DNA of 64,000 bases from an uncultured Christensenella sp. (GTDB lineage: Bacteria > Bacillota > Clostridia > Christensenellales > Borkfalkiaceae), in NCBI GenBank assembly GCA_910578065.1, contig CAJTPB010000009.1:17149-81148 (forward strand), given 5' to 3'. The notes below the pieces were generated by a model. That model was not told the origin of the DNA. It ran no database searches and saw only the letters and a program-made list of their open reading frames with translations. A program made the position numbers and the translations under genes. Positions 2,941 to 48,855 of the stretch are shown in pieces (within the stretch, counting starts at the first letter, position 1; each line of letters starts with the position of its first letter).

Positions 2941-3036
2941 GAAATTGAAAAAATGGAATTTGCGAACAGATATAAAAAATACGGCGCGTAAATTTGTATT
3001 TACCGCCGTATGGAAAATAAAAGGAGGCTGTACGAT

Positions 3037-4815
3037 ATGAAAGGAAAATTAACGTTAATTTCCGCATTGTCGCTGTGCGCGTTCGCGGGCGCGCTTGCCG
3101 CATGCGGAGAAACCGCTTCGGAACGCGAAGGGTATACCCTTGCCGCGGCGTATGCGAAAGCGGCGGATTTGGGCTACAGCGGATCGGAAGAAGCGTTTTA
3201 TACGCGGCTTTCGGCGGCGGGGAGCGATACGATTGCATCGGTGGAATTAAACGGAGAAAACGAAGTGATCGTAACGCTTGCGGACGGCACCCGGTATTCG
3301 CTGGGTAAAATTGCATGCGAGCACGCATATTCCCGGTGGCAAACGGGCGCGGCTGCTACCTGTACCTCGCTGGGGTACGATTTTCGCGAGTGCCTTCTCT
3401 GCGGCGATAAAGATTATGACTTTAAAGAGGCGACCGGGCACATGGCGGACGAATACGTGTGCGATCAATCGAGCCATGCCTACGCCTGCGTTTATTGCGG
3501 CGCTTATATGTGGGAGGAACATGCTTTCGACGAGGAGAAAACGTGTACGGCGTGCGGATACGTTGCCGATTACAGTGTGGGGCTTACATACAAATATCTG
3601 CCCGAAACAAACTCGTACGCGGTTGCCGCAACAGGCGCTTGCAAAGACGACGTTATCATTGTGCCTTCGCAGTACAAAAATCGCTCTGTAACGGAAATCG
3701 CGGCGGGTGCGTTTAGCAACGCGCATTTTGTGACGGAGATTGTTTTGCCCGATACAATTACGGAAATAGGAGAGCGGGCGTTTGAAATGTGCGAACGTTT
3801 GCAGAAGATTGCAATTCCGGAAGGGGTTACGGTGATTCGCAGAAGAGTTTTTGCGATGGATCGCGCGCTCGAACACGTAACGCTTCCGCATACCGTTAAA
3901 ACGATCGAAATGCAAGCGTTTGTATTTTGCGCCTCGCTCACCGAATTTACTTTGCCCGATGCAATCACGGAAATAGGGAGCGGAGCGTTTGCAGGGTGCC
4001 GAAATCTAACAAAAATCAATTTGCCGCAATCGCTGCAAACGATTGAAACGCAAGCGTTTGTAGTGTGCGGTTTAACGGAACTCGAACTGCCCGCAGGACT
4101 AAAAACGATTGGAAGCAACGCTTTTCGGTCAAACAACTTTCGGCGCGTGGAAATTCCGCAAGGAATTACCGTAATAGAAGAAAATGTGTTCTATGGGTGC
4201 AATAACTTAGAAGAGGTCGTTTTACCTGCGAATATAACGGAAATAAAACAACGTGCGTTTAACAATTGCCGCGCTTTGCGGCAAATTACCTTCCCGCAAG
4301 GGCTGCGCACGATCGGCAGATATGCGTTTGCGTCAAGCGGACTTACAAGCGTCGCCTTTCCCGCAAGCGTGACTGAAATCGGCGAGGGCGCGTTCAGCCA
4401 TTGCAAATTAACGCAACTCGAACTTCCCGCAACGATAACGTCTGTTAAAAGCGATGCGTTTGCCAATAATCAATCGCTTACAAGGGTAACGGTCGGCTGT
4501 TCGGCGGCGGGCAGCGGAATATTTGCAAATTGCAAAAACCTTGCTTCGGTCGTGCTGGCGGAGGGGATAAGCGTGCTTTCCGCCGGAATGTTCTACGGGT
4601 GCGAATCGCTTACCGAGCTTGTAATACCGCAGTCGGTCGCAACCGTTCAAACGCACGCGCTGTTTGGCTGCCTGCAATTAAAACAAATTGTTTTTCGGGG
4701 AACGGCGGAAGAGTGGAAAACGATCGAAAAAGAAAGCGAGTGGATCCGTAAAGATAATATCATTTCCGATTTAAGCATCGTTTGTTCGGATAAAACGCTC
4801 GAATACATTTGGTAA
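3037..4815 (+). CDS. BspA-type leucine-rich-repeat (LRR_5) surface lipoprotein with an N-terminal Cys-rich region
   Basis: AGGAGG RBS before the ATG at 3037. Signal peptide plus lipobox LAAC. Many repeats of the form xIxIPxxVTxIGxxAFxxCxxL. Confidence 0.8.
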   Translation: MKGKLTLISALSLCAFAGALAACGETASEREGYTLAAAYAKAADLGYSGSEEAFYTRLSAAGSDTIASVELNGENEVIVTLADGTRYSLGKIACEHAYSRWQTGAAATCTSLGYDFRECLLCGDKDYDFKEATGHMADEYVCDQSSHAYACVYCGAYMWEEHAFDEEKTCTACGYVADYSVGLTYKYLPETNSYAVAATGACKDDVIIVPSQYKNRSVTEIAAGAFSNAHFVTEIVLPDTITEIGERAFEMCERLQKIAIPEGVTVIRRRVFAMDRALEHVTLPHTVKTIEMQAFVFCASLTEFTLPDAITEIGSGAFAGCRNLTKINLPQSLQTIETQAFVVCGLTELELPAGLKTIGSNAFRSNNFRRVEIPQGITVIEENVFYGCNNLEEVVLPANITEIKQRAFNNCRALRQITFPQGLRTIGRYAFASSGLTSVAFPASVTEIGEGAFSHCKLTQLELPATITSVKSDAFANNQSLTRVTVGCSAAGSGIFANCKNLASVVLAEGISVLSAGMFYGCESLTELVIPQSVATVQTHALFGCLQLKQIVFRGTAEEWKTIEKESEWIRKDNIISDLSIVCSDKTLEYIW

Positions 4816-4822
4816 CAAAAAT

Positions 4823-4849
4823 AGCGGCGGACCTAAAAAGTCCGCCGCT
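4823..4849. terminator. Bidirectional terminator shared by the convergent LRR genes
   Basis: AGCGGCGGAC-CTAAAAA-GTCCGCCGCT, a 10-bp stem flanked by A-rich and T-rich runs. Confidence 0.75.
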
Positions 4850-4860
4850 GATTTGTTTAA

Positions 4861-6549
4861 TCAATTTTCCATTTGATACCATTCGCAATGCAAATATTCG
4901 CTTTGCAAATTCGCTGCGTTGGTTTCGGGGTTTGTTACGTCGATCTGGTCTGCTTGTTGGGAGCCGTATTGAATATACCAATTTGCCGTATCGGCAAAGG
5001 TAATTTTTTCAAGTTGAAACCCTTTAAACGCATAGGCATGAATGGCGTAAGCGCTTCCGTTTACGGCTGCGGGAAGGGTAATTTGTTTTTCGCTTCCGAT
5101 ATACCGCATGAAACTGTAATTGCCGTCGGCATCTTTCCAGAACAAGAAATCGCCTACTTTTTCTACTGCGCTGCCGTCCGCTTCGGTTAAGATTTCCAAA
5201 TAATCGGAAAAATAGTATTTGCCGATTTTCTCGTTGATCTGCGCATTGGTGAAAGAGGTTTTGTTGATCACTCTTATAAGCGTGCGGTTTGCGTGAAAAA
5301 GGTAATTGCCCAGCGTTTCAATGCTTTGTGGCAAGGTAACTTCTACCAGCGCGTTTTGTTCGAACGCGTTGTCGCCGATTGTCTTTAATCCTTCCGAAAA
5401 AGCTGCCGAATAAATATTTCCGCCTTGGGCGAACGCGTATTCGCCGATTTCCGTTACGGAAGAGGGGATCTCTACTTCGGTAATCTTATCGTAGCGGAAA
5501 AATGCGTATTGACTGATTTTGCTTGTTCCTTCGGGAATCGTCAGCTTTCCTTCTACCAATTTTCCGTCGATGAAAAGTTCGCAGTTTTCGCTTTCGTTAA
5601 AGCTGTAAAGCGGGGTAGAACCGACGTTTTCCAACTCGATTTCGCACCAATTTTTTAACGTGCCCTCGAAAATCACTTTATTTAATTTCGGAAAGGCGAG
5701 CGCGCCTTTTTTGCTCCGTTTCAGCGTTGCGGGCAGCGTAATGCAGGTTACGTTGTACATTTGGGAATTGTAGTAAAAATTTTCGGGAATTTCTTCCGCG
5801 TGCAAAAGAGTAAGCGCTTTGGGCGATTCGCTAAAAATGCTATCCAACACGACGTTTACGGTTGCGGAATAGTGATCGAGTTTGCAATTGATAAAAACAC
5901 CTTCGTCTAACGTGGCGGAATCGGCGTTTATCGTAATGCTTTTTAAAGCGCTGCAATCGCCGAATGTCTGAACGCCCAGCGTTAAACGCTCTTCTCCCAT
6001 AAATTGTACCGATTCGAGCGCGATGCAATCGTCGAAAACCATATCGCCGAGTACGGCGTTTCCGTTTACCGTCGCCGTTTTTAAATACTTATTTTCCGCA
6101 AAGGCAGAACTTTCGATATCGGTAACGTGCGCGGGAAGGGCGATCGTTTCCAATCCGGTATTTCGAAAGGCGGAAGATTCGATTTTGGTAATGTTTTTTC
6201 CCCAATTCACCGTTTTCAAATTCTCGCAATCTTGAAACGCGCTCGAGGCAACGATTTTGATATTGTCGGAAAAAGTTACGCTTTTAATTCCCGTTTCTTC
6301 AAATGCTCCGGTGCTGATTTCGGTAACCGGTTTTCCCTTGTACTCTGCGGGAATGACAAGATCTGCGTTTTCCCACATATCTTTGTATTCCGAATCAACA
6401 GCGACGCAATAAGAAAGTCCGTCGTCCGATTTCCAGTAATAAAATCCTTTCCCTTCGTCCGAATCGTCGCCGCATGCGGCAAGCGTGCCCATCGCCGCAA
6501 ACAATGCGGAAGCGGTAAGCAGGGTAAAAATTACGTTATGCTTTTTCAT
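4861..6549 (-). CDS. BspA-type leucine-rich-repeat surface lipoprotein (second paralog)
   Basis: GGGAGG RBS and ATG at 6549 (MKKHNVIFTLLTASALFAAMGTLAACGDD, lipobox LAAC), followed by LRR_5-like repeats. Confidence 0.8.
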   Translation of the reverse strand: MKKHNVIFTLLTASALFAAMGTLAACGDDSDEGKGFYYWKSDDGLSYCVAVDSEYKDMWENADLVIPAEYKGKPVTEISTGAFEETGIKSVTFSDNIKIVASSAFQDCENLKTVNWGKNITKIESSAFRNTGLETIALPAHVTDIESSAFAENKYLKTATVNGNAVLGDMVFDDCIALESVQFMGEERLTLGVQTFGDCSALKSITINADSATLDEGVFINCKLDHYSATVNVVLDSIFSESPKALTLLHAEEIPENFYYNSQMYNVTCITLPATLKRSKKGALAFPKLNKVIFEGTLKNWCEIELENVGSTPLYSFNESENCELFIDGKLVEGKLTIPEGTSKISQYAFFRYDKITEVEIPSSVTEIGEYAFAQGGNIYSAAFSEGLKTIGDNAFEQNALVEVTLPQSIETLGNYLFHANRTLIRVINKTSFTNAQINEKIGKYYFSDYLEILTEADGSAVEKVGDFLFWKDADGNYSFMRYIGSEKQITLPAAVNGSAYAIHAYAFKGFQLEKITFADTANWYIQYGSQQADQIDVTNPETNAANLQSEYLHCEWYQMEN

Positions 6550-6618
6550 GTTTTCCTCCCGAAAAAATGGTTTTTCATGCCCTTGCATATGCAATGCAAC
6601 GGGCGTTTTACGTAACAT

Positions 6619-13628: not shown

Positions 13629-14546
13629 TTACAATACTCTGCGCGAGGTGATATAGTAGCTCCAACGCGTTGCCGAAATCTGTTCGATCTTCGCATAGTC
13701 GGAAGCCGTGTGCAAAATATAGTTTTCGCCCAGATACAGCGCAACGTGTCCGATCCGTTCCACCCCCGTTTTGTTATAGCGGGAAGCGTTGGTAAAGAAC
13801 ATCAAGTCGCCCCGTTTCAGATTTTCCTTTTTTACGGGCTGCCCCTGCGAAACCTGCGTGCGGGTAGTGGTGTTCAGCAGCACGCCCGCGCCCTCGTAAA
13901 AGATATACTGCATTAAGGAAGAGCAGTCGAACTGTTTCACCGTAAAGCCCTTTAAAAAGTTGCCTTTTCCGTCGTGCAGGCGCACGGCGCCGTACACATA
14001 AGGAACGCCCAGTCTGCGCAGCCCTTCGTCGATCACGTTTTCTACGTCTTCTTCGCCTTTATCCAGAACGGTTACGGAAGTATACGCCGTGTTCGCGCTG
14101 ATATAAGCGGTTCTGCCTTTATAATACGTTTCGTACCAATCGCCTACCTTGCCCGTATATTTTAACAGTACGTCTTTTTCTACCGTGCCAAGCGAGGTGT
14201 GCGCGGTTCCCGCGCCTGCCCGCACGTTTACGCCGTTGTGGTGCACGTATACATATTGCGCTTTTACGGGTTTGGGCGGTTCGGGTTCGGGCTCCGGTTC
14301 CGGTTCGGGAAGGGGATCTTCCGCGGCGGGGGGATCGGTTTCTTCCGATTGATCGGGTTGTTCCGGCTCCGCAGGCGTTTCGCCTTCAACGGGCGGCGCC
14401 TCTTCGGGAATATCTTCGGGGAAAAGGGAGGGGATATCGATTTCCTCTTCCTTTTCGGGTACATACGAATCCGCGTTCTCGGAACACGCACCGAGCGGGA
14501 CGGATAAAAGCAGTGCGGCGAGCGCGACTGCGAACGTCTTTTTCAT
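13629..14546 (-). CDS. Secreted NlpC/P60 cell-wall endopeptidase lipoprotein with a Pro/Glu-rich linker and an SH3b domain
   Basis: AGGAGG RBS, ATG at 14546, lipobox LGAC, PEPEPEPEPEPP linker, then FDCSSLMQYIF ... GHVALYLG (Cys/His catalytic pair). Confidence 0.85.
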   Translation of the reverse strand: MKKTFAVALAALLLSVPLGACSENADSYVPEKEEEIDIPSLFPEDIPEEAPPVEGETPAEPEQPDQSEETDPPAAEDPLPEPEPEPEPEPPKPVKAQYVYVHHNGVNVRAGAGTAHTSLGTVEKDVLLKYTGKVGDWYETYYKGRTAYISANTAYTSVTVLDKGEEDVENVIDEGLRRLGVPYVYGAVRLHDGKGNFLKGFTVKQFDCSSLMQYIFYEGAGVLLNTTTRTQVSQGQPVKKENLKRGDLMFFTNASRYNKTGVERIGHVALYLGENYILHTASDYAKIEQISATRWSYYITSRRVL

Positions 14547-14727
14547 ACTTAAATCCTCCTGTTTGGCTGTTTTTCGGCGGGGATATGTGAAGTTCCTTCG
14601 CCGTGGAACTATCGTATCAGAAAATATACGCAAATACAAGTATTTCGGGCTGGTGAGTTACAGGAAAAAGCGGCAAAATTTGGAAGTTGAGTTTGCCCAA
14701 TTTCAAGCAATGTGATATACTGCTATC

Positions 14728-15026
14728 GGGCAAAAACTTTTATATATTCGGTTGCGTTCCGGCGCAGGTTCTGCCAACGCTCATTCGCATTACTTAACGG
14801 CTTCGGGTGACGATAACGGTATGTTGGCGCTAACGCCAAATTGTCTGCGGCCGCGCGCTTCGTCCCGACCGTTCAAAAACGGAACCTTGAGAACTCGCAT
14901 TGTAGCATACATGCGGGCAGTGAGATGGGGCAAGAAGGGGTTTTTGTCCTGCGCTCGAAAAGAGCCGAATTTGCGTTCAACCGAACTTGCGGCGAAATCT
15001 GCGGGAAAAACGGTTGAACTTTTTTT
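14728..15026 (+). ncRNA. Array unit A (candidate structured RNA / non-canonical sORF transcript); cassette 14764-14841
   Basis: TGaTATACT at 14713-14721. Stem CTCGCAT/ATGCGGG at 14894-14900/14911-14917. Type-1 terminator ending in T7 at 15020-15026. 5' end predicted, not mapped. Confidence 0.5.
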
Positions 15027-15049
15027 GTGCGGCATGGTATCATAAAAAC

Positions 15050-15346
15050 GGGCAAAATCTTTTAGATTCCTGGTTGCGTTCCGGTCACGACGGTACGAAT
15101 TCTCGAGGATTATATCTGACTGCATCCGAAGACCGTGATAGCATTTCGGTAGTAACGCCGTATTGTCTGCGGCCCGCGCTTCGCTCTGACCGTTCAAAAC
15201 GGGAACTTGTGAACTTGCATTGTGGCGTACATGCAGGCAGTGAGATGGGGCAAGAAGGGATTTTTGTCCTGTGCTCGAAAAGAGCCGAATTTGCGTTCAA
15301 CCGAACTTGCGGCGAAATCTGCGGGAAAAACGGTTGAACTTTTTTT
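15050..15346 (+). ncRNA. Array unit B; cassette 15086-15163
   Basis: TGgTATCAT at 15035-15043. Stem CTTGCAT/ATGCAGG at 15214-15220/15231-15237. Type-1 terminator with T7. Confidence 0.5.
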
Positions 15347-15369
15347 GTGCGGTATGGTATCATAAAAAC

Positions 15370-15667
15370 GGGCAAAATCTTTTAAATTCCTGGTTGCGTT
15401 CCGGCCTTATTGCTTACACGAGGGATTCCCATTGTTTGACCGCTACCGGTGATCTTAACTTTGCTACCGTGGGTACGCCGAATTGTCTGCGGCCCGCGCT
15501 TCGCTCCGACCGTTCGAAAACGGGAACTCGTGCACCTGCATTGTGGCGTACATGCAGGCAGTGAGATGGGGCAAGAAGGGATTTTTGTCCTGTGCTCGAA
15601 AAGAGCCGAACCCGATCCGACCGAATCCGCGGCGTAAAATTCTGCGGAAAAAAGCGGTCGGATTTTT
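15370..15667 (+). ncRNA. Array unit C; cassette 15406-15483
   Basis: TGgTATCAT at 15355-15363. Stem CCTGCAT/ATGCAGG at 15535-15541/15552-15558. Type-2 terminator GATCCGACCG...CGGTCGGAT with T5. Confidence 0.5.
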
Positions 15668-15690
15668 CGAATTGTGATATAATCATTTAC

Positions 15691-15986
15691 GGGCAAAAAC
15701 TTTTATGTATTCGGTTGCGTTCCGGCTATGAATTTAATACAAACACTGCGTTTCACACGACTGCATCGGGTTTTTATGACAGTGTTTCAGTTCTTACGCC
15801 GAATTGTCTGCGGCCGCGCTTCGCTCCGACCGTTCAAAACGGGAATTTGTGAACTTGTATTGTAAGATACGTGCAGGCAGTAAGATGGGGCAAGAAGGGG
15901 TTTTTGTCCTGCGCTCGAAAAGAGCCGAATTTGCGTTCAACCGAACTTGCGGCGAAATCTGCGGGGAAAACGGTTGAACTTTTTTT
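15691..15986 (+). ncRNA. Array unit D; cassette 15727-15804
   Basis: TGaTATAAT at 15675-15683. Stem CTTGTAT/GTGCAGG at 15854-15860/15871-15877. Type-1 terminator with T7. Confidence 0.5.
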
Positions 15987-16009
15987 GTGCGGTATGGTAT
16001 CATAAAAAC

Positions 16010-16308
16010 GGGCAAAATCTTTTAAATTCCTGGTTGCGTTCCGGCAATCCTCATAACGCGACGGTTTCCTATTATGTGACCGCCGTAGGTGACTATAATG
16101 ATAGTACGGTAGTAACGGCAAATTGTCTGCGGCCCACGCTTCGCCCGACTGTTCAAAAACGGAAACTCGTGCACCTGCATTGTAGCATACGTGCAGGCAG
16201 TGAGATGGGGCAAGAAGGGGTTTTGTCCTGCGCTCGTAAAAGGGCCGAAACCGATCCGACCGTTTCCGCGGCGTAAAAAATTTGCGGAAAAGTACGGTCG
16301 GATCTTTC
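16010..16308 (+). ncRNA. Array unit E; cassette 16046-16123
   Basis: TGgTATCAT at 15995-16003. Stem CCTGCAT/GTGCAGG at 16174-16180/16191-16197. Type-2 terminator with a weak T-run. Confidence 0.5.
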
Positions 16309-16329
16309 GAATTGTGATATAATAAAGGC

Positions 16330-16628
16330 GGGCAAAAACGTTTATATTCCTGGTTGCGTACCGGTAATTTTGGTTACCAGAAGTATTCGATCTGCATGAC
16401 CGTTGTTGATGATTACATTGCTGCTAACGTTGACACGCCGTATTGTCTGCGGCCGCGCTTCGCCCCGATCGTTTTAAAACGGACTCGCGTACCTGTACTG
16501 TGATTTACATACAGGCAGTAAGATGGGGCGGGAAGGGGTTTTTGTCCTGCGCTCGCAAAAGAGCCGAACCCGATCCGACCGTTTCCGCGGCGTAAAAAAT
16601 TTGCGGAAAAGTACGGTCGGATCTTTCG
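16330..16628 (+). ncRNA. Array unit F; cassette 16366-16443
   Basis: TGaTATAAT at 16315-16323. Stem CCTGTA/TACAGG at 16492-16497/16510-16515. Type-2 terminator with a weak T-run. Confidence 0.5.
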
Positions 16629-16707
16629 TATATCTGATTGGGAGCGGAATCGCTTTACAATTATTTGCGGGTTTGCTATAATACGCCCGATACAAAAGGA
16701 AACGGTT

Positions 16708-19089
16708 ATGGAAAAAGTAGTTATCGAAGAAACGAAAGCGCAAAAGCGTTCTTTCTATAAAACGGTATGGGCATTACTCATTCCCATAGCGTTGCAAAAT
16801 TTGATTACCGTAGGCGTAAGCGCGGCGGACGTTTTAATGCTTGGCGCAATCGGCGACGAAGCGGCGGCGGAAGTGGCGCTTTCCGCGGCGTCGCTTGCAG
16901 GGCAGGTTACGTTTATTTTTTCGCTGATCCTATTCGGGCTGAGTTCGGGCGCGGCGGTGCTTACCGCGCAGTACTGGGGCAAGGGCGATCGCGTTTCGGT
17001 GGAAAAAGTGCTTGCGCTTACCGTGCGGTTTGCCTATTGTTTCGGCATTCCCTTTTTTCTTGCCGCGCTGTGTTTGCCCGAACCGCTCGTGCGTGTGTTC
17101 GCGGGCGACGAAGCCGTTATCGCGGAAGGGGTAAAGTATCTGCGCATTGTATCCGCTTCGTACCTGTTCATGTCGTTCAGCGTGGTGTTTTTAAACGTAA
17201 TGCGCAGTGTGGAACGGGTGATTGTTTCTTCCGTCGTATACTTTGTTTCGCTGGTCGTAAACGTAATTTTAAACGCGGTGTTTATCTTCGGCGCGGGGGC
17301 GCTTCCCGCAATGGGCGTTTCGGGCGCGGCGATCGCAACGCTGTGCGCGCGGGTATTTGAATTTTGCATTGTCGTTGTGTATGCATGCGCGGCAAAACTT
17401 CCCGTGCGATTCCGCATTCGCTATTTGTTCCGTTCGGAGAAACAGTTGGTAAAAGATTATTTCCGTTATGCGGGTCCCGTGCTGCTGAACGAACTTTTTT
17501 GGGGAAGCGGCACCTCGGCGGTAACGGCGGTGATCGGTCATTTGGGCAACGCCGCTTCGGGGGCGAACGCCGTCGTGCAGGTGGTGCGTCAGCTCGGCGT
17601 CGTGTTTACGATGGGCGTTTCCAACGCCGCGGCGATCGTGATCGGCAAGACCATCGGCGAGGGCAGGGAAAAAGAAGCGCGCGTATATTCGGGGCGTTTG
17701 GTGTGCATGTCTGCGATCACGGGGGTGGCGAGCGCGGCGGTCGTGCTTTGCTGTATTCCCGTTTTAACGCGGCTGCTCGATTTAAGCGAAGAAGCGAAAA
17801 GCAATCTTATTATGATGCTTTGCGTGCTTGCGGTGTATATTTTATTTCAATCGGTCGCCTGCGTGATCGTAGTAGGACTGTTGCGGGCGGGCGGCGATAC
17901 GCGGTTCGGGCTGATCACCGACGTAGGGTTTTTATGGCTGTTTTCCGTGCCTGCGGGTGCGATTGCGGCGTTTGCTTTGCACGCGCCCTTGTGGGTAACG
18001 TACATTCTGCTTTCTTCCGACGAGGTGTTAAAGGCGGTTCCCGTGTTCTTGCGGTACCGTTCGGGGAAGTGGCTGAAAAACGTTACGCGCGATCGTCTCG
18101 AACAAAACGATTGCGTTTCCGCGGTTGAAACTGCGGCGGAATGTGGTATAATAGAAGAAGAGCAAGAAATAACGAAAGGGGAAGGCGGTATGGTTTTGGA
18201 AAGTTTCGACGGAAAAAAGATTTGCGTTTACGAATGGCTGAACGCGGAAGATCCCAAGGGGATCGTACAGATCGTGCACGGCATGACGGAGCATGCAACG
18301 CGGTACGAAGCGTTTGCGCGCTTTTTGAACGAACACGGTTTTTTGGTCGTTGCCGACGATCACCGCGGACATGGGGCAACCGATCCCGATACATTGGGCT
18401 ACTGCAAGGGGAATATGTTCCGCGATACGGTGACGGACGAGGGCATGATCACCGATCATTATAAGGCGAAGTTCCCCTATCTTCCCTACTTTGTGTTCGG
18501 ATTTTCGTACGGCTCGTTTTTAACGCAAAGTTACATCGGGCGGTTCGGCGATAAGATCGACGGCGCCGTGATCGGCGGAAGCAATTATAAAAAGGACGGC
18601 GAAGTTTACGCGGGTTCATTTGTAACGGCGGTTTGCAACTTTTTCGGCGGAGAGAAAAAGCCTGCGAAGCTGATCGAAAAACTTTCGTTCGGCGCGTACG
18701 AAAAGCAGTTCGAAGACGGGGAATGGTTAAGCAACGATCAAGAAAACAACGCCCGTTACCATGCCGACCGCCTATGCGGATTCACATGCTCTAACCGTTT
18801 TTATGCCGACTTTTTTAAGGGGCTGAAAAGTTTGTACACAAAAAAATATATCAAATCGCTGAATAAAGATTTGCCGCTGCTCCTTGTTGCGGGCGCGAAA
18901 GATCCCGTAGGCGATCAAGGCAAAGGCATGCAAAAACTGCGCGATTTTTATGCGGAAGAAGCGGGGGTAAAAGACGTGCGGCTTGTTCTGTTCGAAAATT
19001 CCCGTCACGAATTTTTAAACGAAAAAGAGAACGCGGAAGAAAAGCGGAATACCCTGTTGCAATTCTTCCAAGAGTTCGGCGCAAAATAA
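16708..19089 (+). CDS. MATE family efflux transporter (about the first 450 aa) fused in frame to an alpha/beta hydrolase (lysophospholipase/monoacylglycerol-lipase-like, about the last 310 aa)
   Basis: 12-TM MATE-like N-terminal part. The C-terminal part has HGMTEHATRYEAFARFL, DHRGHG and a GFSYGS nucleophile elbow. There is no stop between the two parts. Confidence 0.8.
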   Translation: MEKVVIEETKAQKRSFYKTVWALLIPIALQNLITVGVSAADVLMLGAIGDEAAAEVALSAASLAGQVTFIFSLILFGLSSGAAVLTAQYWGKGDRVSVEKVLALTVRFAYCFGIPFFLAALCLPEPLVRVFAGDEAVIAEGVKYLRIVSASYLFMSFSVVFLNVMRSVERVIVSSVVYFVSLVVNVILNAVFIFGAGALPAMGVSGAAIATLCARVFEFCIVVVYACAAKLPVRFRIRYLFRSEKQLVKDYFRYAGPVLLNELFWGSGTSAVTAVIGHLGNAASGANAVVQVVRQLGVVFTMGVSNAAAIVIGKTIGEGREKEARVYSGRLVCMSAITGVASAAVVLCCIPVLTRLLDLSEEAKSNLIMMLCVLAVYILFQSVACVIVVGLLRAGGDTRFGLITDVGFLWLFSVPAGAIAAFALHAPLWVTYILLSSDEVLKAVPVFLRYRSGKWLKNVTRDRLEQNDCVSAVETAAECGIIEEEQEITKGEGGMVLESFDGKKICVYEWLNAEDPKGIVQIVHGMTEHATRYEAFARFLNEHGFLVVADDHRGHGATDPDTLGYCKGNMFRDTVTDEGMITDHYKAKFPYLPYFVFGFSYGSFLTQSYIGRFGDKIDGAVIGGSNYKKDGEVYAGSFVTAVCNFFGGEKKPAKLIEKLSFGAYEKQFEDGEWLSNDQENNARYHADRLCGFTCSNRFYADFFKGLKSLYTKKYIKSLNKDLPLLLVAGAKDPVGDQGKGMQKLRDFYAEEAGVKDVRLVLFENSRHEFLNEKENAEEKRNTLLQFFQEFGAK

Positions 19090-19230: not shown

Positions 19231-19926
19231 ATGGAAGGAATCAAAGTTACCGATTTAAGAAAGAGTTACGGCACCGAACAAAATCCGATCCGCGCGCTCG
19301 ACGGTGCGAGTTTCGAGATCCGCGAAGGGGAATTCACCGTAGTCCTCGGTCCGAGCGGTTCGGGCAAAAGCACCCTTTTGAATATTTTAGGCGGAATGGA
19401 TACCGCCGATTCGGGCAGCGTTTCGGTATTCGGAAAAGACATTACCAAATACAGCGCAAAGCAGCTTGTAAACTATCGCCGCAAAGAGATCGGGTTCGTC
19501 TTTCAGTTTTACAACTTAATGCCCAACTTAACCGCGCTCGAAAACGTGGGCATCGCCCGTTTGGAAGGGGGCATGGACGAAAGCACCGCCTTAAACCGCG
19601 TGGGGCTTACCGAGCGCAAGGGCAACTTCCCCGCGCAGCTTTCGGGCGGGGAACAGCAGCGCGTCGCCATTGCGCGGGCGATCGTAAAAAAGCCGCGTCT
19701 GCTGTTGTGCGACGAACCGACGGGCGCGCTTGATTCCAAAACGGGGCAAAAGATCTTACTGCTTTTGCAAAGCCTGAAAGAGGAAGAGGGAACGACGGTC
19801 GTTATCGTAACCCACAACGCCAAACTCGCCGCCGTCGCCGACAGGGTGATCCGCATATCGGATGGAAAGGTACAGGAAAACACGGTGAACGAATCGCCGT
19901 TGCGGGCAGGTGAAGTAGAGTGGTAA
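19231..19926 (+). CDS. ABC transporter ATP-binding protein (MacB/FtsE/LolD-like)
   Basis: Walker A GPSGSGKST, signature LSGGEQQRVAIARA, Walker B LLLCDEPTGALD. Confidence 0.9.
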   Translation: MEGIKVTDLRKSYGTEQNPIRALDGASFEIREGEFTVVLGPSGSGKSTLLNILGGMDTADSGSVSVFGKDITKYSAKQLVNYRRKEIGFVFQFYNLMPNLTALENVGIARLEGGMDESTALNRVGLTERKGNFPAQLSGGEQQRVAIARAIVKKPRLLLCDEPTGALDSKTGQKILLLLQSLKEEEGTTVVIVTHNAKLAAVADRVIRISDGKVQENTVNESPLRAGEVEW

Positions 19927-22241
19927 ACGGACTTTTGATTAAGCTGATGCTGCGCGAGCTGAAAAAGAACTGGTTTCAGTACCTTTCCATGTTCGTTATC
20001 ACCGTGCTCGCGGTAACGCTGTTTTTGGGGTTTATCTCCAACACGCTCACCCTGCGCAGACGCGCCGATCTGTATTTGAAAGAAAGCAATCTTGCCGATC
20101 TCGTATTGCAGACAAGCGGCATGGAACAGGAGGATAGGGATTACCTCGAAGGACTGTCTTCCTTAAAGGCGCCCGTCGAATACCGCATGTATTCAGACGG
20201 CGAATTCGGTAAAACGGACGGCGATCACGCTTCCCGCAATACGGCGAAGATTTACGTTTTCGACGGGCAGATCAACAAGCCGTATTTGACCGAAGGGGAA
20301 GCGGGCGTGTTGATCGACCGCACGGTAGCCGAACTGTACGGCTACCGTATCGGCGACGAAATCGAAATAGAGTTCACCGCTTATTCGCTTAGTTTAACCT
20401 TTTCGATCAGCGGTTTTATGCATTCTGTGGAAGGGGTAAACATATACGCGAATTCCCCCGTGTTCATTACGGAAGAAACCTTTCAAACGGCTTTTTTCGG
20501 CACGTTCGAATACCCCGTGTCCGAACCTATGAAACGCGCGATTTTGCAAACCATGCGCAATCAAGCGCTGATCTTGTGCGAAAACGTTGCGCAGACGAAA
20601 GAGGAAATACAAGATACATTTGCGCAAAAGCCTGTGGATAATCTGTTGTTTGTATTCGACAGAAACAGCATGGAATCGGTCGTGATTTTAGATAACGAGG
20701 TAAAGCAGTCGCTGAACATGCTGTATATCTTCCCCGTGATCTTCTTCCTCGTTTCCGTTCTGGTGATCATGTCTACCATCAGTCGTTTGATCTTGCGCGA
20801 GCGCATCACCATCGGCACGATGAAAGCGCTTGGCATTTCCAACGGCAGAATCATTTTTCACTACGCGTTTATGAGCGCGGCAATCACCTTTTTCGGGTGC
20901 GTCGCGGGCGCGATCATCGGTCCGCTGATCGTGCCCGCCGTTATGACGATCAAATACGGCTTGATTTTTTCTCTGCCGCAAATGACGGGTACGGTGTTCA
21001 GCGCGGCGTGGACGTTCGGCACGGCGTTCGCGGTGTGCTTGCTGTCGCTATTGATCGGCGTATGGGCTTCCCGTTCGGTGATGAAAGAAAATCCCGCCGA
21101 GTGCATGCGCCCCAAGCAGGCGCATTACCGCCCCCGCACAAAAAAGCAATCGTCGAAAAACGCGGGGCAGTCGCTGCTCGCGCTGCGCATGGCGGCGCGC
21201 AATATCCGTATCAACCGCGGGCGTTCGCTTATGACGGTGGTCGGCATACTCGGTTGCAGCGCGCTGCTCGTAACCAGTTTCGGCATCGGCGATACAATGG
21301 CGGCTTCCGTTCAAAACGACTACGGCACGCTGTTTTATTACGACGTTTCCAGCCCTTACGTTTCCGCGCGGCAATCGGAATTTTTCGGCGCGCTGGAAGA
21401 AATGAAAGGGAACGGAACGGTCCAAACGTACGAGCGCACCAAGCAATATGTTGCTACCGCCTCTTCCGCGGGCGTGAATAAAGACGTTTCCGTTTACATT
21501 ATTCCGAAAGATTCCGCCATGACGCAGATGGCACAAACGGGTAATATCCTGTCCGAGATCACCGCTTCGATTTTAGGCGTAAAAGAGGGGGATACCCTAA
21601 CCTTTTCCCTGGGCGGGTGCGTAACGGAATATGCGATCGACGGCATTGTGACAACTTCTACTTGGAACGGATTTTTTACGACGGAAGATAAGTTTACGGG
21701 ATGTTTCGGATCGGAGAGCGTTTGGGTAAAAACGCAGTCGCCCGACGAAGTGCGCGACGCGCTCGATTTGGCAAACGGCAGTCAGATAGCCAAAACGATG
21801 GCGGATAAAATTGCAGAGATCGAAAACATGATCTCTTCCACCAACGCCATGAAGTATACGCTTATGGTGTTTGCGATTATGCTTTCGGTGGTGGTGCTTT
21901 ACAACCTTTCGCTGTTGAACGTGAAAGAGCGCACGCGCGACATGGCAACGTTAAAAGTGCTCGGCTTTACCGATTTCAGAATCGCCGGTTCGCTGATCGC
22001 GGAAATTATGATTTTAACTTTGATCGGTACGGCGATCGGCTGTCTGTTCGGGTACCCGCTTATGTATCTTGTAATGAAGTTGAACGAAATGGCGACGATG
22101 GCGTTCGTCTATTCCGTTTCCTTCGCTTCGTACGTGTGGTCGGCGGCGGTATCGCTGGGTACGAGCATGGCGATCAATTTAATGTTCGGCGCGCTGATTT
22201 CCAAAATCGGTATGACCGAATCGCTGAAAAGCGTAGAGTAG
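19920..22241 (+). CDS. ABC transporter permease with two FtsX/MacB-type domains
   Basis: 773 aa with a GTG start overlapping the ATPase stop. It contains two 4-TM FtsX modules separated by large extracytoplasmic regions. Confidence 0.85.
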   Translation: MVNGLLIKLMLRELKKNWFQYLSMFVITVLAVTLFLGFISNTLTLRRRADLYLKESNLADLVLQTSGMEQEDRDYLEGLSSLKAPVEYRMYSDGEFGKTDGDHASRNTAKIYVFDGQINKPYLTEGEAGVLIDRTVAELYGYRIGDEIEIEFTAYSLSLTFSISGFMHSVEGVNIYANSPVFITEETFQTAFFGTFEYPVSEPMKRAILQTMRNQALILCENVAQTKEEIQDTFAQKPVDNLLFVFDRNSMESVVILDNEVKQSLNMLYIFPVIFFLVSVLVIMSTISRLILRERITIGTMKALGISNGRIIFHYAFMSAAITFFGCVAGAIIGPLIVPAVMTIKYGLIFSLPQMTGTVFSAAWTFGTAFAVCLLSLLIGVWASRSVMKENPAECMRPKQAHYRPRTKKQSSKNAGQSLLALRMAARNIRINRGRSLMTVVGILGCSALLVTSFGIGDTMAASVQNDYGTLFYYDVSSPYVSARQSEFFGALEEMKGNGTVQTYERTKQYVATASSAGVNKDVSVYIIPKDSAMTQMAQTGNILSEITASILGVKEGDTLTFSLGGCVTEYAIDGIVTTSTWNGFFTTEDKFTGCFGSESVWVKTQSPDEVRDALDLANGSQIAKTMADKIAEIENMISSTNAMKYTLMVFAIMLSVVVLYNLSLLNVKERTRDMATLKVLGFTDFRIAGSLIAEIMILTLIGTAIGCLFGYPLMYLVMKLNEMATMAFVYSVSFASYVWSAAVSLGTSMAINLMFGALISKIGMTESLKSVE

Positions 22242-45594: not shown

Positions 45595-48500
45595 ATGAAA
45601 AGAAAACTGTTAGTATCCCTCTTTTCGGCTGCGGCGCTTTGCGCGTGCATCGGCGCGGGCTGCGCCGTCGAGCCGACGGAAAGCGAACTGAACGGCATAA
45701 AAAATTTCGGGTTCGAAAATCCCGCGCACGAGAACGAATATCTTTCCCGCTATGCAACGGACGAAGGGTTTGAGATCGACGGCGTGCTAAGCGAAAACGT
45801 TTGGCAGGAAAACGGCACGGCGTTCACCTTCGAACACGAATCGAGCACGGCGGAAAACCCCGTTACGATGACGAGCAAAAGCTACCTCGGCGAAAAGGGG
45901 GTATACCTCGCGCTTTCGGTAAAAGATACGGCGGTGTACTACTCGCCTGATCGAAAGGCTTCGGGCAATACCTCTGTAGAAGTGTACCTCGGCGCGTTCG
46001 GCAAAACGGAATGGGACGGCAACAGTTTCCGCATTTCCGTCGTGCCCACGGGGAACGAAAGTTGCACCACCGAAATGCGCACCTACCGCACCAAAAAGGC
46101 GGCTTTTACGGGGGATACCGACACGCTGAAAGCGGAATGGAGCCTTTGGTACAAAGCGCATAAAGCGGCATGCCGTGTAAACGGCGCGGGCATCAACACG
46201 GGCTTTAACGAGGGGTACGACGTAGAATTGTTCGTGCCGTACGAAAGTTTGGGGATCGAACAAAAGCCGGAAGCGGTGCAGTACATGACGGCGTTTTACC
46301 ACGTAGAATCGGAAGCGACGAATGCAGACAGCGTTTGGACGAAGTGCGATCAAAACGTGGCGACAACCTCGCTCGGCGGCTGGCTGGTCGCAACGAACGA
46401 CGCGATCGGATATTATTCGGAAATGGCTGATCAAATCTTTGCCGAGAAAGACGGCTACATGACCATTGACGGCAAGCTGATCGAATCCGTTTGGCATGCG
46501 GAAAACGCGCTTACCTACCGCCCGAAGAACGCAGCTTACGGCACGGATGCTTCCGTTTCGACGATCGCTCACCTTTCCGATTTGGGCGTGTACGTCGGCA
46601 TGACGGTAAAAGACAGCAAGGTTTACGCAACGGGCGCGCGCAACGTAAAGTTCAACAGCGGCGTAGAACTGTGGGTACAGAGCGCGGACGCGGAAGCGGT
46701 AAACGAAAAATCGGTGCAGCTTCGCGTCGACGCGCTGGGCAACGTAAGCAAATGGCAGGGCACGGGCGCGACGGACGGCGGCGCCTTTGCCGAAAAATAC
46801 TTCCCTTCCATTTCGGCGGTAACGCTGCTCGGGTGCGAAAAGGTGAACGGCGCCGTGGCAAGCGATACGGCGGAAGGGTTCTGCGTAGAGGTGTTTATTC
46901 CTTGGTCTTCCCTCGGCATGAACGAAAAACCGAACTCGGTTGCGGTGTATCCTTCTTACGTGCACGCGGGCAACAATACCAATACGAACAACACCACCAA
47001 CGAATATTGGCAGTATTTCCAGCTCGCTTCGCAGACGGCGGCAAGAACGCAGTCGAAATCGGCGTTCCTGCGCCTTACGGACGGCGGCTTCGAAGGGGTT
47101 TTGATTACGGAAAGTTTTGCGTTCAACGCGGATGATTTACAGCAAGACGGCAGCTATAAAACCCGCTTCGATCTGATCAAAGAATACCGCCCCGCGCCCG
47201 CTTCGCAAAAGCTCGACTCTATCGCCGTGACCGATGCGGTTTGCGAAGAAGAGGGGATATCGATCACCCATTTGGGCGAAGGGGAATACGAAATCGTCTT
47301 CTCGCCGCAGGCGGTGCTCGCTTGCACGAACGGCAAAGAATTTACCCTGCGTTCGGGCGCGTTAAGCGCAACGGCTACGGCGCAATATCTGCCCGTTTTC
47401 TTCGACGGCGAGGTGAACGATTCGGAAGGCTACGCGCCCCCGTACAGCTTCGTCACGCAAGACAGCGGCGGAAAATACAACGAAATTACCGTAAATGCAA
47501 AACCCGTGTCCGCGGGCATGGTGCTTGCAATTACAATGCGATCTTCGTATATCAACTATCAAACAACGGAATTAGGAAACGGAAACAACGGCGGCGGCAT
47601 CGAGATTATGATGGCAAGCACCCCTTCGGCAACCGATACGAACGGCATTTGGTGGCGTCTGTTCGCAGACGGCAGCGCGCGCTGCGTGCGCGATCTAACC
47701 AAGGGCGCGCCGCTGAACGAGCGCACGAAAACGCCGCTCGGAAGCAGTTCGTACGCGGTGGGGTTAACGCCCGTCGATGCGGAAAATCCCGCAGAGGGCT
47801 ACTCTCGCATGACGGCGGAATTCTTTATTCCGTATGCGGCGGTCGGCGCAGCGGGCGCGGAAGATTTCTATTTCGTCGTCGGCGCGGTCGGCACAAAGGT
47901 TTCCGATAATTCTTCGCTTGCGATCCGCTGGGCAGACGGTTCCGCCGTTGCAAAACCTGCCGACGCACTGTGGACGAGCGCGGCTTCGGCGGGTGCGAAC
48001 CGCTTGCAAGATCAAACGGTAACGGTAACGTCAGAAGAGGGCGGCTGCTCGTTTAAAGTAAAAACGTCCGTCGGCGAATACACTTACGCGAAAGGTTTAA
48101 ATTTCGTGGGGGGGGGTACGGTAGCGGAAGGCGTGTTCGGCACGTATACTTGTACCCTTACGCAGCCGGCAACGCTAACCGCAACGCGTGGCGGACAAAC
48201 GGTAACCGTTACGGTCGTATACAACGCCGCGCTGTCATTGGACGGCACTGTAAACGACGGCGAATATACGGGGCATTTTACCTATCGCATCGGCGGCACG
48301 GGTATCGGGAAAGACGCAAACGATTACGCGGATATCAAAGTTTCTTACTACCTTTCTTCGTCCGCCCTATACCTCGCGTTCGAAGCGACGGAAAACACCG
48401 CGAAAACGCTTACGAATACGGGCGCGAACACAAACCAAGGATCGGCGGGAATGGACTTTGTGGTTGCTTCTGCCGAAAACAAGGCGAGTTATTACCGCGC

Positions 48501-48855
48501 GTATGCTTCGGGATTGATGCGCAAAAAATCGGTTGCGACGATCGCGACGGGTAGTTTCGGCGCGCCCGCGGCGCCTGCGGCGGAAAACTTTATGCGGGGC
48601 AGCCACACGGTAGAAGCGGGGCAGACGCAAAGCGGGATCACGCAATGGGCGATGGAATGGAAAATCGAATTTTCCGCGCACGGCGTTTCTTCCGCAGACG
48701 ATTTGCGCTTCCTGTTCGGGTGGATCAACGCGAACAACGCCGACCGTTTTTACGGTAAACTTACGGGGCAGACGAACGCGATTACCTCTTATGGCGAATA
48801 TTTCTCGCTTGCCGACATTATCGCGCTTGCCGAAGAAGAACAGGCGGGAGCGTGA
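45595..48855 (+). CDS. Large (1086 aa) surface lipoprotein with repeated carbohydrate-binding (CBM9/DOMON-like) modules
   Basis: Signal peptide with a Cys-containing lipobox-like site (LCACIGAGC). Modules recur of the form IDG.L.E.VW...... V(K/T)D..VY .... E(V/L)(Y/W). The family call comes from sequence pattern only. Confidence 0.6.
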   Translation: MKRKLLVSLFSAAALCACIGAGCAVEPTESELNGIKNFGFENPAHENEYLSRYATDEGFEIDGVLSENVWQENGTAFTFEHESSTAENPVTMTSKSYLGEKGVYLALSVKDTAVYYSPDRKASGNTSVEVYLGAFGKTEWDGNSFRISVVPTGNESCTTEMRTYRTKKAAFTGDTDTLKAEWSLWYKAHKAACRVNGAGINTGFNEGYDVELFVPYESLGIEQKPEAVQYMTAFYHVESEATNADSVWTKCDQNVATTSLGGWLVATNDAIGYYSEMADQIFAEKDGYMTIDGKLIESVWHAENALTYRPKNAAYGTDASVSTIAHLSDLGVYVGMTVKDSKVYATGARNVKFNSGVELWVQSADAEAVNEKSVQLRVDALGNVSKWQGTGATDGGAFAEKYFPSISAVTLLGCEKVNGAVASDTAEGFCVEVFIPWSSLGMNEKPNSVAVYPSYVHAGNNTNTNNTTNEYWQYFQLASQTAARTQSKSAFLRLTDGGFEGVLITESFAFNADDLQQDGSYKTRFDLIKEYRPAPASQKLDSIAVTDAVCEEEGISITHLGEGEYEIVFSPQAVLACTNGKEFTLRSGALSATATAQYLPVFFDGEVNDSEGYAPPYSFVTQDSGGKYNEITVNAKPVSAGMVLAITMRSSYINYQTTELGNGNNGGGIEIMMASTPSATDTNGIWWRLFADGSARCVRDLTKGAPLNERTKTPLGSSSYAVGLTPVDAENPAEGYSRMTAEFFIPYAAVGAAGAEDFYFVVGAVGTKVSDNSSLAIRWADGSAVAKPADALWTSAASAGANRLQDQTVTVTSEEGGCSFKVKTSVGEYTYAKGLNFVGGGTVAEGVFGTYTCTLTQPATLTATRGGQTVTVTVVYNAALSLDGTVNDGEYTGHFTYRIGGTGIGKDANDYADIKVSYYLSSSALYLAFEATENTAKTLTNTGANTNQGSAGMDFVVASAENKASYYRAYASGLMRKKSVATIATGSFGAPAAPAAENFMRGSHTVEAGQTQSGITQWAMEWKIEFSAHGVSSADDLRFLFGWINANNADRFYGKLTGQTNAITSYGEYFSLADIIALAEEEQAGA

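Follow-up and report, generated by a model that had tools for sequence, protein, structure and literature searches.

Tandem genes of a structured RNA carrying hypervariable, triplet-phased cassettes in uncultured Clostridia

The window considered here is a stretch of 64,000 nt from the genome of an uncultured Christensenella species (contig CAJTPB010000009.1 of assembly GCA_910578065.1, positions 17,149 to 81,148, forward strand), and all coordinates given below count from its first letter unless another locus is named. Repeat finding and alignment place in it, at positions 14713 to 16626 of the plus strand, an array of six tandem units (A to F), which are six stand-alone genes of a previously undescribed structured RNA, encountered so far in a few related uncultured Clostridia. 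Broadly, each unit consists of a conserved RNA scaffold that surrounds a cassette of hypervariable sequence, and the cassette, judged by its pattern of substitutions and gaps, is evolving in codon register in the sense frame. We favor, with a rough probability of 0.3, the reading that the cassette is decoded directly from the RNA, with initiation at a conserved UUG and without a Shine-Dalgarno (SD) sequence, and we rank this ahead of the copying of the cassette as a template and ahead of a role at the RNA level only, both of which we regard as less probable. The family appears to be new, and categorically new in kind.

The units lie head to tail with a period of 320 nt, as measured with Tandem Repeats Finder, and each specifies an RNA of about 280-300 nt. 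Every unit of the window and of all relatives is preceded by a sigma-70-type promoter with an extended -10 element (TGnTAnnnT) that ends 6-8 nt before the sequence GGGC, and each is closed by a two-tier hairpin and T-run of its own; with a promoter and a terminator apiece, the units are therefore separate transcription units, read from the plus strand. Their parts are as follows.

14713-16626, plus strand: whole array, units A to F
14728-15026, plus strand: unit A RNA, from the first base of helix P1 to the terminator T-run; extended -10 element TGATATACT at 14713-14721, plus strand
15050-15346, plus strand: unit B RNA; promoter TTGAAC-18-TATCAT at 15014-15043
15370-15667, plus strand: unit C RNA; promoter at 15334-15363
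15691-15986, plus strand: unit D RNA; extended -10 element TGATATAAT at 15675-15683
16010-16307, plus strand: unit E RNA; promoter at 15974-16003
16330-16626, plus strand: unit F RNA; extended -10 element TGATATAAT at 16315-16323
14764-14841, plus strand: cassette A, 78 nt, AGSANAHSHYLTASGDDNGMLALTPN
15086-15163, plus strand: cassette B, 78 nt, HDGTNSRGLYLTASEDRDSISVVTPY
15406-15483, plus strand: cassette C, 78 nt, LIAYTRDSHCLTATGDLNFATVGTPN
15727-15804, plus strand: cassette D, 78 nt, YEFNTNTAFHTTASGFYDSVSVLTPN
16046-16123, plus strand: cassette E, 78 nt, NPHNATVSYYVTAVGDYNDSTVVTAN
16366-16443, plus strand: cassette F, 78 nt, NFGYQKYSICMTVVDDYIAANVDTPY
15072-15084, plus strand: invariant 5' flank of unit B, GGTTGCGTTCCGG, 13 nt, which includes the conserved UUG; in the other units at 14750-14762, 15392-15404, 15713-15725, 16032-16044 and 16352-16364 (T to A in the last), plus strand
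15164-15173, plus strand: invariant 3' flank of unit B, TGTCTGCGGC, 10 nt; in the other units at 14842-14851, 15484-15493, 15805-15814, 16124-16133 and 16444-16453, plus strand
15050-15057, plus strand: 5' strand of helix P1 in unit B, GGGCAAAA, at the predicted transcription start; in the other units it starts at 14728, 15370, 15691, 16010 and 16330
15262-15269, plus strand: 3' strand of helix P1 in unit B, TTTTGTCC; in the other units at 14942-14949, 15583-15590, 15902-15909, 16221-16228 and 16540-16547
15174-15261, plus strand: structured 3' domain of unit B, with a counterpart in all six units; its parts are a closing helix Pa (CUUCGCYCC / GGGGC..GAAG), a short hairpin H1 (15190-15202), a helix Pb and a long hairpin H2 (15215-15236)
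15271-15346, plus strand: 3' tail of unit B, a hairpin with a GAAA loop (15271-15285) followed by a two-tier intrinsic terminator with outer stem GUUCAACCG/CGGUUGAAC, inner stem YYUGCGG/CYGCGGR, compensatory changes, and a T-run ending at 15346

The conserved part of each unit is a genuine structured RNA, as a reading of the sequence alone (hereafter the sequence-only reading) had already proposed. In an alignment of 14 units from four species, the consensus fold comprises 56 pairs, of which 23 show compensatory changes, and 93.4% of all cells are paired; none of 500 column shuffles matched it, and in a control in which the 3' partners were slid by 1-3 columns the pairing fell to 37-52%. The RNA is closed by helix P1, in which its first eight bases (GGGCAAAR) pair with YUUUGYCC about 215 nt downstream, with every cell paired and an AU/GC exchange at pair 8. 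Inside this closure stand, in order, an AU-rich linker of 14 nt, the 13-nt invariant flank, the cassette, the 10-nt invariant flank and a 3' domain of three helices, namely a closing helix, a short hairpin and a long hairpin with covariation at 8 of its 10 pairs. Beyond P1, a small hairpin precedes the terminator, in which covariation is seen in the outer stem and in the inner stem alike. A 4-bp hairpin is predicted in the 5' flank (YGG-UUGCGUU-CCG), and GGUUGCG of this flank could instead pair with UGCGGCC of the 3' flank, a pairing on which covariation is uninformative, both sides being invariant. The inner stem of the terminator (CUUGCGG-CGAAAU-CUGCGGG; window 15290-15346 and alike in each unit) repeats the UUGCG and CUGCGG motifs of the flanks around a 6-nt loop, so as to resemble an empty cassette site, and TGCGGCG there is invariant across species.

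The cassettes, by comparison, are unstructured: against dinucleotide shuffles five of the six score z = +0.3 to +0.8, i.e., they fold worse than their shuffles, and they share no common fold, which rules out a hairpin of the retron msd type within them. In all six window units the variable part is exactly 78 nt long and bounded by the invariant flanks GGTTGCGTWCCGG and TGTCTGCGGC, the borders reading GGTTGCGT(T/A)CCGG+N on the 5' side and TGTCTGCGGC on the 3' side. With the conserved TTG setting a common frame, none of the six contains a stop, and every one of the five remaining frames is interrupted in at least one unit; in units A and B this applies to both remaining plus-strand frames. These properties were reported in the sequence-only reading, whose coordinates, frame and listed peptides we confirm, together with the synonymous codons that it listed for Thr12, Ala13, Val22, Asp16, Leu11 and the flanking Gly, and with its statement that no canonical start, SD or stop is present. 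Directly 3' of the flank TGTCTGCGGC, indels of 1-2 nt begin to break the frame, and the frames of the units diverge.

It was also claimed that the cassette evolves like protein-coding sequence, and the relatives described below bear this out in cassette lengths, in indels, in positional entropy and in the ratio of non-synonymous to synonymous polymorphism (pN/pS). All 32 distinct cassettes measure 72, 75, 78 or 84 nt (24-28 residues), none departing from a multiple of three. In the 14-unit alignment the gap runs within leader and cassette are multiples of three in five of five cases (3, 6, 6, 9 and 9 columns), as against only 4 of 25 in the 3' domain and terminator, a contrast for which a hypergeometric estimate gives about 1e-3, the gap runs not being fully independent. 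Over 26 cassettes, stops number 2 in frame +0 as compared to 46 in +1, 54 in +2, 11 in -0, 49 in -1 and 30 in -2, and both of the frame-0 stops are point variants of single strains.

The consensus of the cassette is NNT NNT NNT (T/A)AC ACG ANN NNT TCC NAT TAT TTG ACC GCT ACC GGT GAT NNT RAC NNT GCT ACC GTR GNN ACG CCG AAT, and the corresponding peptide module of 24-28 residues has the form xxxYTRxSxYLTATGDxNxATVxTPN, in which hypervariable residues (positions 1-3, 7, 9, 17, 19 and 23) interleave with conserved ones. Seven of the hypervariable codons are of the type NNT, with entropies of 1.82, 1.67 and 0.82 bits at the first, second and third codon positions, and in the remaining codons the order turns over to 0.74, 0.80 and 1.10 bits, the third position being the most variable. 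For codons 10-25 the pN/pS ratio is 0.67 in frame 0 vs 1.12 and 0.83 in the other frames, and for codons 1-9 it is 1.15. Leu11 is written as TTG, TTA or CTG. Near-identical alleles differ by five single synonymous changes at third positions vs about five non-synonymous changes, and their last two codons have been swapped recurrently. The third-position pattern that the sequence-only reading took for a signature of selection on a peptide is seen outside the hypervariable codons, but some third positions are fixed (ACG at codon 24 in 15 of 15 alleles). The alternation of residues looks beta-strand-like, and the module as written would be of a strand-turn-strand kind.

About 30 independent assemblies, representing at least four related uncultured Clostridia, contain homologous arrays of two to six units. 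Those of the window species were recovered through the exact protein encoded by the downstream MatE-hydrolase gene and its variants, in metagenome-assembled genomes (MAGs) labelled "Clostridia bacterium", and those of other lineages through spurious open reading frames (ORFs) matched by a profile of the six LRSG-x26-CLRP peptides among 1.84 billion protein representatives. Three further lineages were obtained in the latter way: L009 (NCBI GCA_022791285.1) with an array of four units, L010 with one of three, and L007, L008 and L011-L016, as the third, with arrays of two to four. Eight cassette alleles (A-H) recur within the window species, along with minor variants; its arrays have 4-6 units whose order, loss and duplication vary by strain, and the same cassettes occur on different scaffold variants. 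Between species, halves of cassettes can be identical or nearly so on scaffolds that are only about 70% alike, as in E compared with unit 1 of L009 and in G compared with unit 2 of L010.

One lineage has shortened units of about 293 or about 214 nt (L007 559-1061; L011 10300-10806; equivalents in L012, L014 and L016) from which most of the 3' domain and the 3' strand of P1 are missing and in which the cassettes (GERN..., PHRY..., SLDN...) are nevertheless intact and conserved between strains; codon 17 of one of these cassettes is TAG, TCG or ACG, depending on the strain. Contigs of the window species often begin or end within the array (L020-L022, L024-L027 and L029-L033), and L019 has a gap of N at 2684-2782. 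The repeat thus breaks assemblies, which is probably the reason why the pattern is missing from GTDB and MAG representatives.

If the information held in the cassettes is read out of the RNA itself, the route that we rank first is direct, SD-independent translation from the UUG of the 5' flank. The product would be M-R-S-G, the cassette, C-L-R-P and an unselected tail, which would either be removed or cause the ribosome to stall, and to be rescued, at the folded 3' domain; scaffold and flanks would stabilize the RNA and gate access to the UUG, and the several differently loaded units of one genome would supply a variable set of peptides on which diversifying or balancing selection acts. The ORF runs in the sense of what looks like an abundant transcript, and upstream of the cassette lie an AU-rich single-stranded linker and the conserved UUG. 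A start at this UUG is favored because its context is AU-rich and unstructured and the codons end in U. Weak folding and codons ending in A or U are typical of translation-initiation regions, and third positions are T in 45% of cassette codons vs 18% in host genes. The searches reported below found neither an acceptor protein nor, in the 64 kb or within 10 kb in other species, a reverse transcriptase (RT), a Cas protein or a recombinase; with no other route of expression found, we count this in favor of direct decoding.

There is much that speaks against such decoding. At the cassettes of the window units, a conserved AUG and a GGAGG-like SD were looked for and not found, whereas GGAGGA precedes the ATG of the neighboring NlpC/P60 gene as an SD; the UUG is the only conserved candidate for a start and lies in a predicted hairpin or stem. 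No conserved stop follows CLRP in the window units or the relatives, the tails after CLRP run for 11-63 codons in the window and 5 to more than 70 in relatives (9 to more than 76 as counted through the conserved fold), and unit A has no in-frame stop ahead of its terminator T-run. Translation would therefore have to unfold a covariation-supported structure that is itself under selection. The usage of codons differs from that of host genes (GGT 69% vs 8%, GCT 53% vs 8% and AAT 78% vs 30%). The openness of the frame is itself less telling than had been supposed: the sequence-only reading put the chance of six open cassettes at (61/64)^156, about 5e-4, a calculation whose null is invalid for cassettes that are homologous rather than unrelated, and within-column shuffling of 16 alleles gives 3.1 expected frame-0 stops vs 1 observed (P=0.15), since a three-periodic column composition nearly accounts for the scarcity of stops. 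The synonymous excess among recent variants is based on about ten events. Finally, ACG at codon 24 is invariant despite its fourfold-degenerate third position, and the flanks are without any synonymous change across species; such fixation points to a constraint at the level of RNA or DNA that would act alongside the codon-like pattern.

Two ways of extending the coding segment were tried and rejected. Coding from the first base of the leader was considered in view of about nine distinct leaders that have no frame-0 stops and of one indel of 3 nt, yet the other frames are also poor in stops and the result is not significant. An SD in the 3' domain of the preceding unit (GAAGGGG, then UUG UCC...) that would feed the next cassette was ruled out by a phase that differs between units: the distance from the UUG of the previous unit to the next cassette is 130 nt from A to B, and the inter-unit frame is not conserved.

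A different use of the same information, which we consider possible but doubtful, is that of a template in the manner of the Neo system or of diversity-generating retroelements (DGRs), in which an RT encoded elsewhere would copy the cassette, held loosely between rigid 5' and 3' scaffolds. A jump between the UGCG shared by the flanks would yield a stop-less repeat of 93 nt (31 codons), ...CL-RSG-x26-CL-RSG..., and possibly a beta-solenoid-like protein; alternatively, the complementary DNA would serve as a donor. The missing start, SD and stop and the sharp end of the coding constraint at the 3' flank are in keeping with this, as are flanks that are nucleotide-invariant and mutually pairable and that both appear to read (T/C)TGCG(T/G) in one codon phase. 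The peptide, moreover, looks like three short strands split by turns at S, GDxN and PN that would need neighbors in order to fold, AlphaFold having returned for one cassette copy only a hairpin of low confidence (predicted local distance difference test score, pLDDT, 53), and a product assembled from such repeats would be missing from protein databases, as is seen.

The closest parallel is the non-coding RNA (ncRNA) of the DRT2 system, in which a template of 120 nt lies between structured parts and the 3' domain has a long and a short hairpin (PMC12039810). Like the array RNA, the DRT2 ncRNA is about 280-300 nt long, with a basal stem, rigid 5' and 3' scaffolds and a loose central stop-less ORF segment that tolerates insertions only as multiples of three, and its product is missing from genome-derived protein databases; the array RNA has the structured scaffold and the triplet indels as well. 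Of the analogy drawn with DRT2 in the sequence-only reading, this general architecture stands and the rest does not. In DRT2 the RT adjoins the ncRNA, neo is antisense to it, and promoter, ribosome-binding site and start recur in each repeat (PMC12039810, PMC11100668). Here the ORF is in the sense orientation, the putative repeat has no conserved promoter, ribosome-binding site or start, the copies are hypervariable, tandem and two to six in number with promoters and terminators of their own, the context is one of housekeeping genes, and there is no sequence or Rfam similarity. The sense ORF would close in phase over the 93 nt between the UGCG motifs, and the antisense frames, in which closure would parallel neo, carry stops.

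The template reading is weakened by the failure of the searches to find such an enzyme. Pfam scans of essentially all ORFs of at least 90 aa revealed no RT, Cas protein or recombinase in the 64 kb. In the two other species for which flanking sequence was available (L009 and L011-L016), the genes called up to 10 kb from the array do not include an RT either; every RT-ncRNA system described so far has its RT next to the RNA. PADLOC turned up nothing relevant, and the context is not that of a defence island. The shortened units keep intact cassettes without their 3' domain, and, to our knowledge, arrays of several hypervariable templates are without precedent.

With the template repeat and spacer RNA of DGRs the array shares a coding copy that looks untranslated and is followed by structured RNA, a GC-rich invariant 3' boundary, and hypervariable codons that cannot mutate to stops because their third position is fixed as a pyrimidine (NNT here, derived from AAY in DGRs). 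The analogy, which the sequence-only reading had also drawn, does not hold further than this: neither RT nor Avd nor a gene bearing a variable repeat was found, there are several templates instead of one, and alleles are stable across samples. Adenine-specific mutagenesis of the DGR type was ruled out, the conserved adenines (codons 4, 5, 12, 24 and 26) being constant and non-adenine columns being variable.

A broader conception, also doubtful in our estimation, is that of a gene-less coding system, in which genes for structured RNA would store hypervariable beta-hairpin modules whose expression would require no conventional ORF. By one route the scaffold would recruit ribosomes to the start-less frame, as a natural bacterial RNA akin to an internal ribosome entry site or to a display RNA; by another, a distant polymerase would jump between the UGCG motifs of the flanks and build stop-less genes of 31-codon repeats, which would be a second form of de novo gene synthesis, on the sense strand and from multiple templates. 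Were either route real, the products would be variable binding proteins for recognition or immunity.

No less tentative is a role at the RNA level only, with the cassette as a recognition, decoy or guide segment and a triplet period that would stem from coding ancestry or from a protein or ribonucleoprotein (RNP) bound in triplet register along the segment, flank to flank. A scaffold with a variable segment and a promoter and terminator of its own resembles single-guide RNAs, and both the turnover of array content by strain, with its losses, duplications and eight recurring alleles, and the sharing of cassette halves between differing scaffolds of different species would suit such a role. Several cassette motifs show no nucleotide change and are complementary to the flanks, as CCGC is to GCGG in the 3' flank. 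Length rules imposed by RNP packaging exist elsewhere, the rule of six of paramyxoviruses being one. What an RNA-only role leaves unexplained is that variation falls on third positions in conserved codons and on positions 1-2 in hypervariable ones, that Leu is drawn from two codon families and that residues alternate in a beta-strand-like manner. Cassettes, unlike spacers, are mutually homologous; neither a cas nor another effector gene lies nearby, and matches to foreign DNA are wanting, as they are for a CRISPR-like or guide-RNA array. The search of the cassettes against phages and plasmids that the sequence-only reading had suggested was made by blastn of two units against both and by tblastn of ten cassettes against phages, and returned nothing; the cassette-core pattern had 0 matches in viral contigs, and the flank-gap-flank pattern had 0 in GTDB representatives and viral contigs.

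Silent donor cassettes for gene conversion at the DNA level into an expression gene, as known from pilS/pilE, vls and tprK, would likewise be variable, would have invariant flanks and would require neither start nor stop, and the mosaic alleles, the repeated swapping of the last two codons and the movement of cassettes between scaffolds would be in character. We nevertheless hold this to be very improbable, and the sequence-only reading, which had raised it, is weakened in this part: no real protein with the segment was found by the six-peptide profile among the 1.84 billion representatives, despite the dozens of assemblies in which the species occurs, nor was an expression locus with the flanks, a second copy of which is lacking in the 64 kb and in every fetched locus. 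In addition, each cassette lies within a promoter-driven gene for a structured RNA, for which silent cassettes have no need. The profile matched only spurious ORFs across the homologous arrays and weak repeat-protein noise, touching RCC1-like and propeller-like repeats weakly by the summing of many stretches. Protein searches by word index, one with a spurious array ORF and another with a profile of 18 peptides, found array-derived ORFs only, and a hidden Markov model of the peptides run against the six-frame translation of the window, as well as an nhmmer unit profile run against the window and all loci, detected no further copies. A database ORF over L007 951-1400 (protein P0005) has no translation under table 11; it is an artefact, in that the gene caller had applied an alternative code to a short contig and taken TGA for Trp.

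The suggestion of a blade of YVTN-type beta-propellers found no support, in that no Pfam repeat family, these included, was significant on single cassettes or on concatemers of 6 to 12 copies, and the AlphaFold hairpin is of the low confidence given above. A resemblance to the architecture of precursor peptides, as in ribosomally synthesized and post-translationally modified peptides (RiPPs) or conotoxins, was proposed as well. Cyanobactin precursors of the PatE type, prochlorosins and conotoxins do have hypervariable cores, nucleotide-conserved flanks and many variants per genome or population. They are, however, ordinary ORFs with leaders and stops beside maturation enzymes, and the array has no leader, SD, AUG, stop or maturase; its conserved downstream sequence is RNA structure with frame-breaking indels, and its neighbors are housekeeping genes that differ between species.

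The least credible of the alternatives, in our judgment, is a trans-translation module resembling transfer-messenger RNA (tmRNA), in which the cassette would supply a tag frame lacking a start and the paired ends would stand in for an alanine acceptor stem. Among known bacterial mechanisms, only that of tmRNA decodes an ORF inside an RNA with neither start nor SD. P1 begins with G-C, G-C and G.U at the exact 5' end in 11 of 14 units, and the ORF occupies a single-stranded stretch flanked by structured parts. ARAGORN found no tRNA or tmRNA-like gene, however, and there is no tRNA-like domain, no T-arm beside the 3' strand of P1, no CCA or discriminator A and no stop that closes the frame. Three units, all from one array, have A-U or G-C as their third pair, and the copies are multiple and hypervariable.

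Dual-function small RNAs (sRNAs) such as RNAIII/hld, SgrS/SgrT and SR1/SR1P are alike in having a short promoter-to-terminator transcript, a conserved fold and an embedded short coding segment, and tandem arrays of paralogues are common among sRNAs. Their ORFs have SD, start and stop, and none has a hypervariable, length-phased cassette between nucleotide-invariant flanks. The array does have what marks sRNAs with small ORFs, an independent transcript and an embedded segment under coding-type selection, but in place of a defined start and stop only the conserved UUG, from which translation would begin. Analyzed family by family, the array RNA lacks defining features of each family against which it was tested, being somewhat like a template or display RNA in part and like an sRNA with a small ORF in part.

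Nor is such an RNA described in Rfam or in the literature searched. Rfam 15 gave no match at gathering score in the 64 kb, and at E<=10 only a chance microRNA model in 14600-16700. The 3'-domain pattern CAGTRAGATGGGGYN{8,16}TTGTCCTG had 0 matches in viral contigs (IMG/VR) and 0 in GTDB representative genomes; its sole match in JGI metagenomes, L001, is due to chance and falls in a coding region unrelated to the array. If the cassettes are decoded, the genomes concerned would hold a strain-variable repertoire of peptides outside the view of gene callers and protein databases, and the "genomic dark matter" argument made from DRT2 and neo would come to include chromosomal housekeeping loci as well as information that is hypervariable. 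Should they not be decoded, a non-coding RNA whose length and variation obey a strict triplet phase would itself call for an RNP of a new kind. In both cases the array RNA makes up a new family of structured RNA that is well supported and modular in its scaffold and cassette, with clear boundaries and a natural allelic series; its scaffold is possibly of biotechnological interest, and it may represent a new way to store or express variable peptide information.

The arrays occur in three housekeeping contexts, between an NlpC/P60 and a MatE gene, between a metallophosphoesterase gene and a pyrR operon, and between DUF4130-radical SAM genes and genes for a response regulator and kinase; across the three no common gene adjoins the array. 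In the window the neighbors are the divergently oriented NlpC/P60 gene (13629-14546, minus strand) and the MatE-hydrolase gene (16708-19089, plus strand), and the window as a whole is core chromosome, with genes for MetRS, TatD, KsgA, EF-G, hrcA-grpE-dnaK-dnaJ, prmA and sugar catabolism. In each of these contexts, surface proteins of the BspA type with LRR_5 repeats are encoded no more than about 10 kb from the array (window 3010-6618; L011 6146-8392; L009 16771-18636), and BceAB-like ABC/FtsX or two-component genes are likewise near (window 19231-22241; L011 802-5993; L009 11189-13329). Both families are common in such genomes and none of these genes adjoins the array, so that their proximity, with a link unproven, may be coincidence. 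In L011-L016 a strain-variable segment lies about 9-10 kb upstream of the array, beyond the FtsX gene (locus positions 1-800), and contains a large serine recombinase, SIR2_2 with STALD, RelE, or an integrase/Rep insertion, which suggests a variable island or defence hot spot near, but not adjoining, the array.

Elsewhere in the window, a plus-strand ORF of 1086 aa (45595-48855) that matches no Pfam or PADLOC model lies between GH43 and SASA esterase genes in a carbohydrate-utilization cluster. The MatE-hydrolase gene beside the array encodes a fusion protein of 793 aa, a MatE efflux transporter with a C-terminal S33/alpha-beta hydrolase domain, and has a strong promoter of its own at 16654-16682. 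On the other side of the array, the NlpC/P60-SH3 protein has an N-terminal low-complexity linker rich in Pro, Glu and Gly (window 14250-14440, minus strand), which is encoded by short repeats of the GGTTCGGG type and whose length depends on the strain (299 vs 305 aa for the protein).

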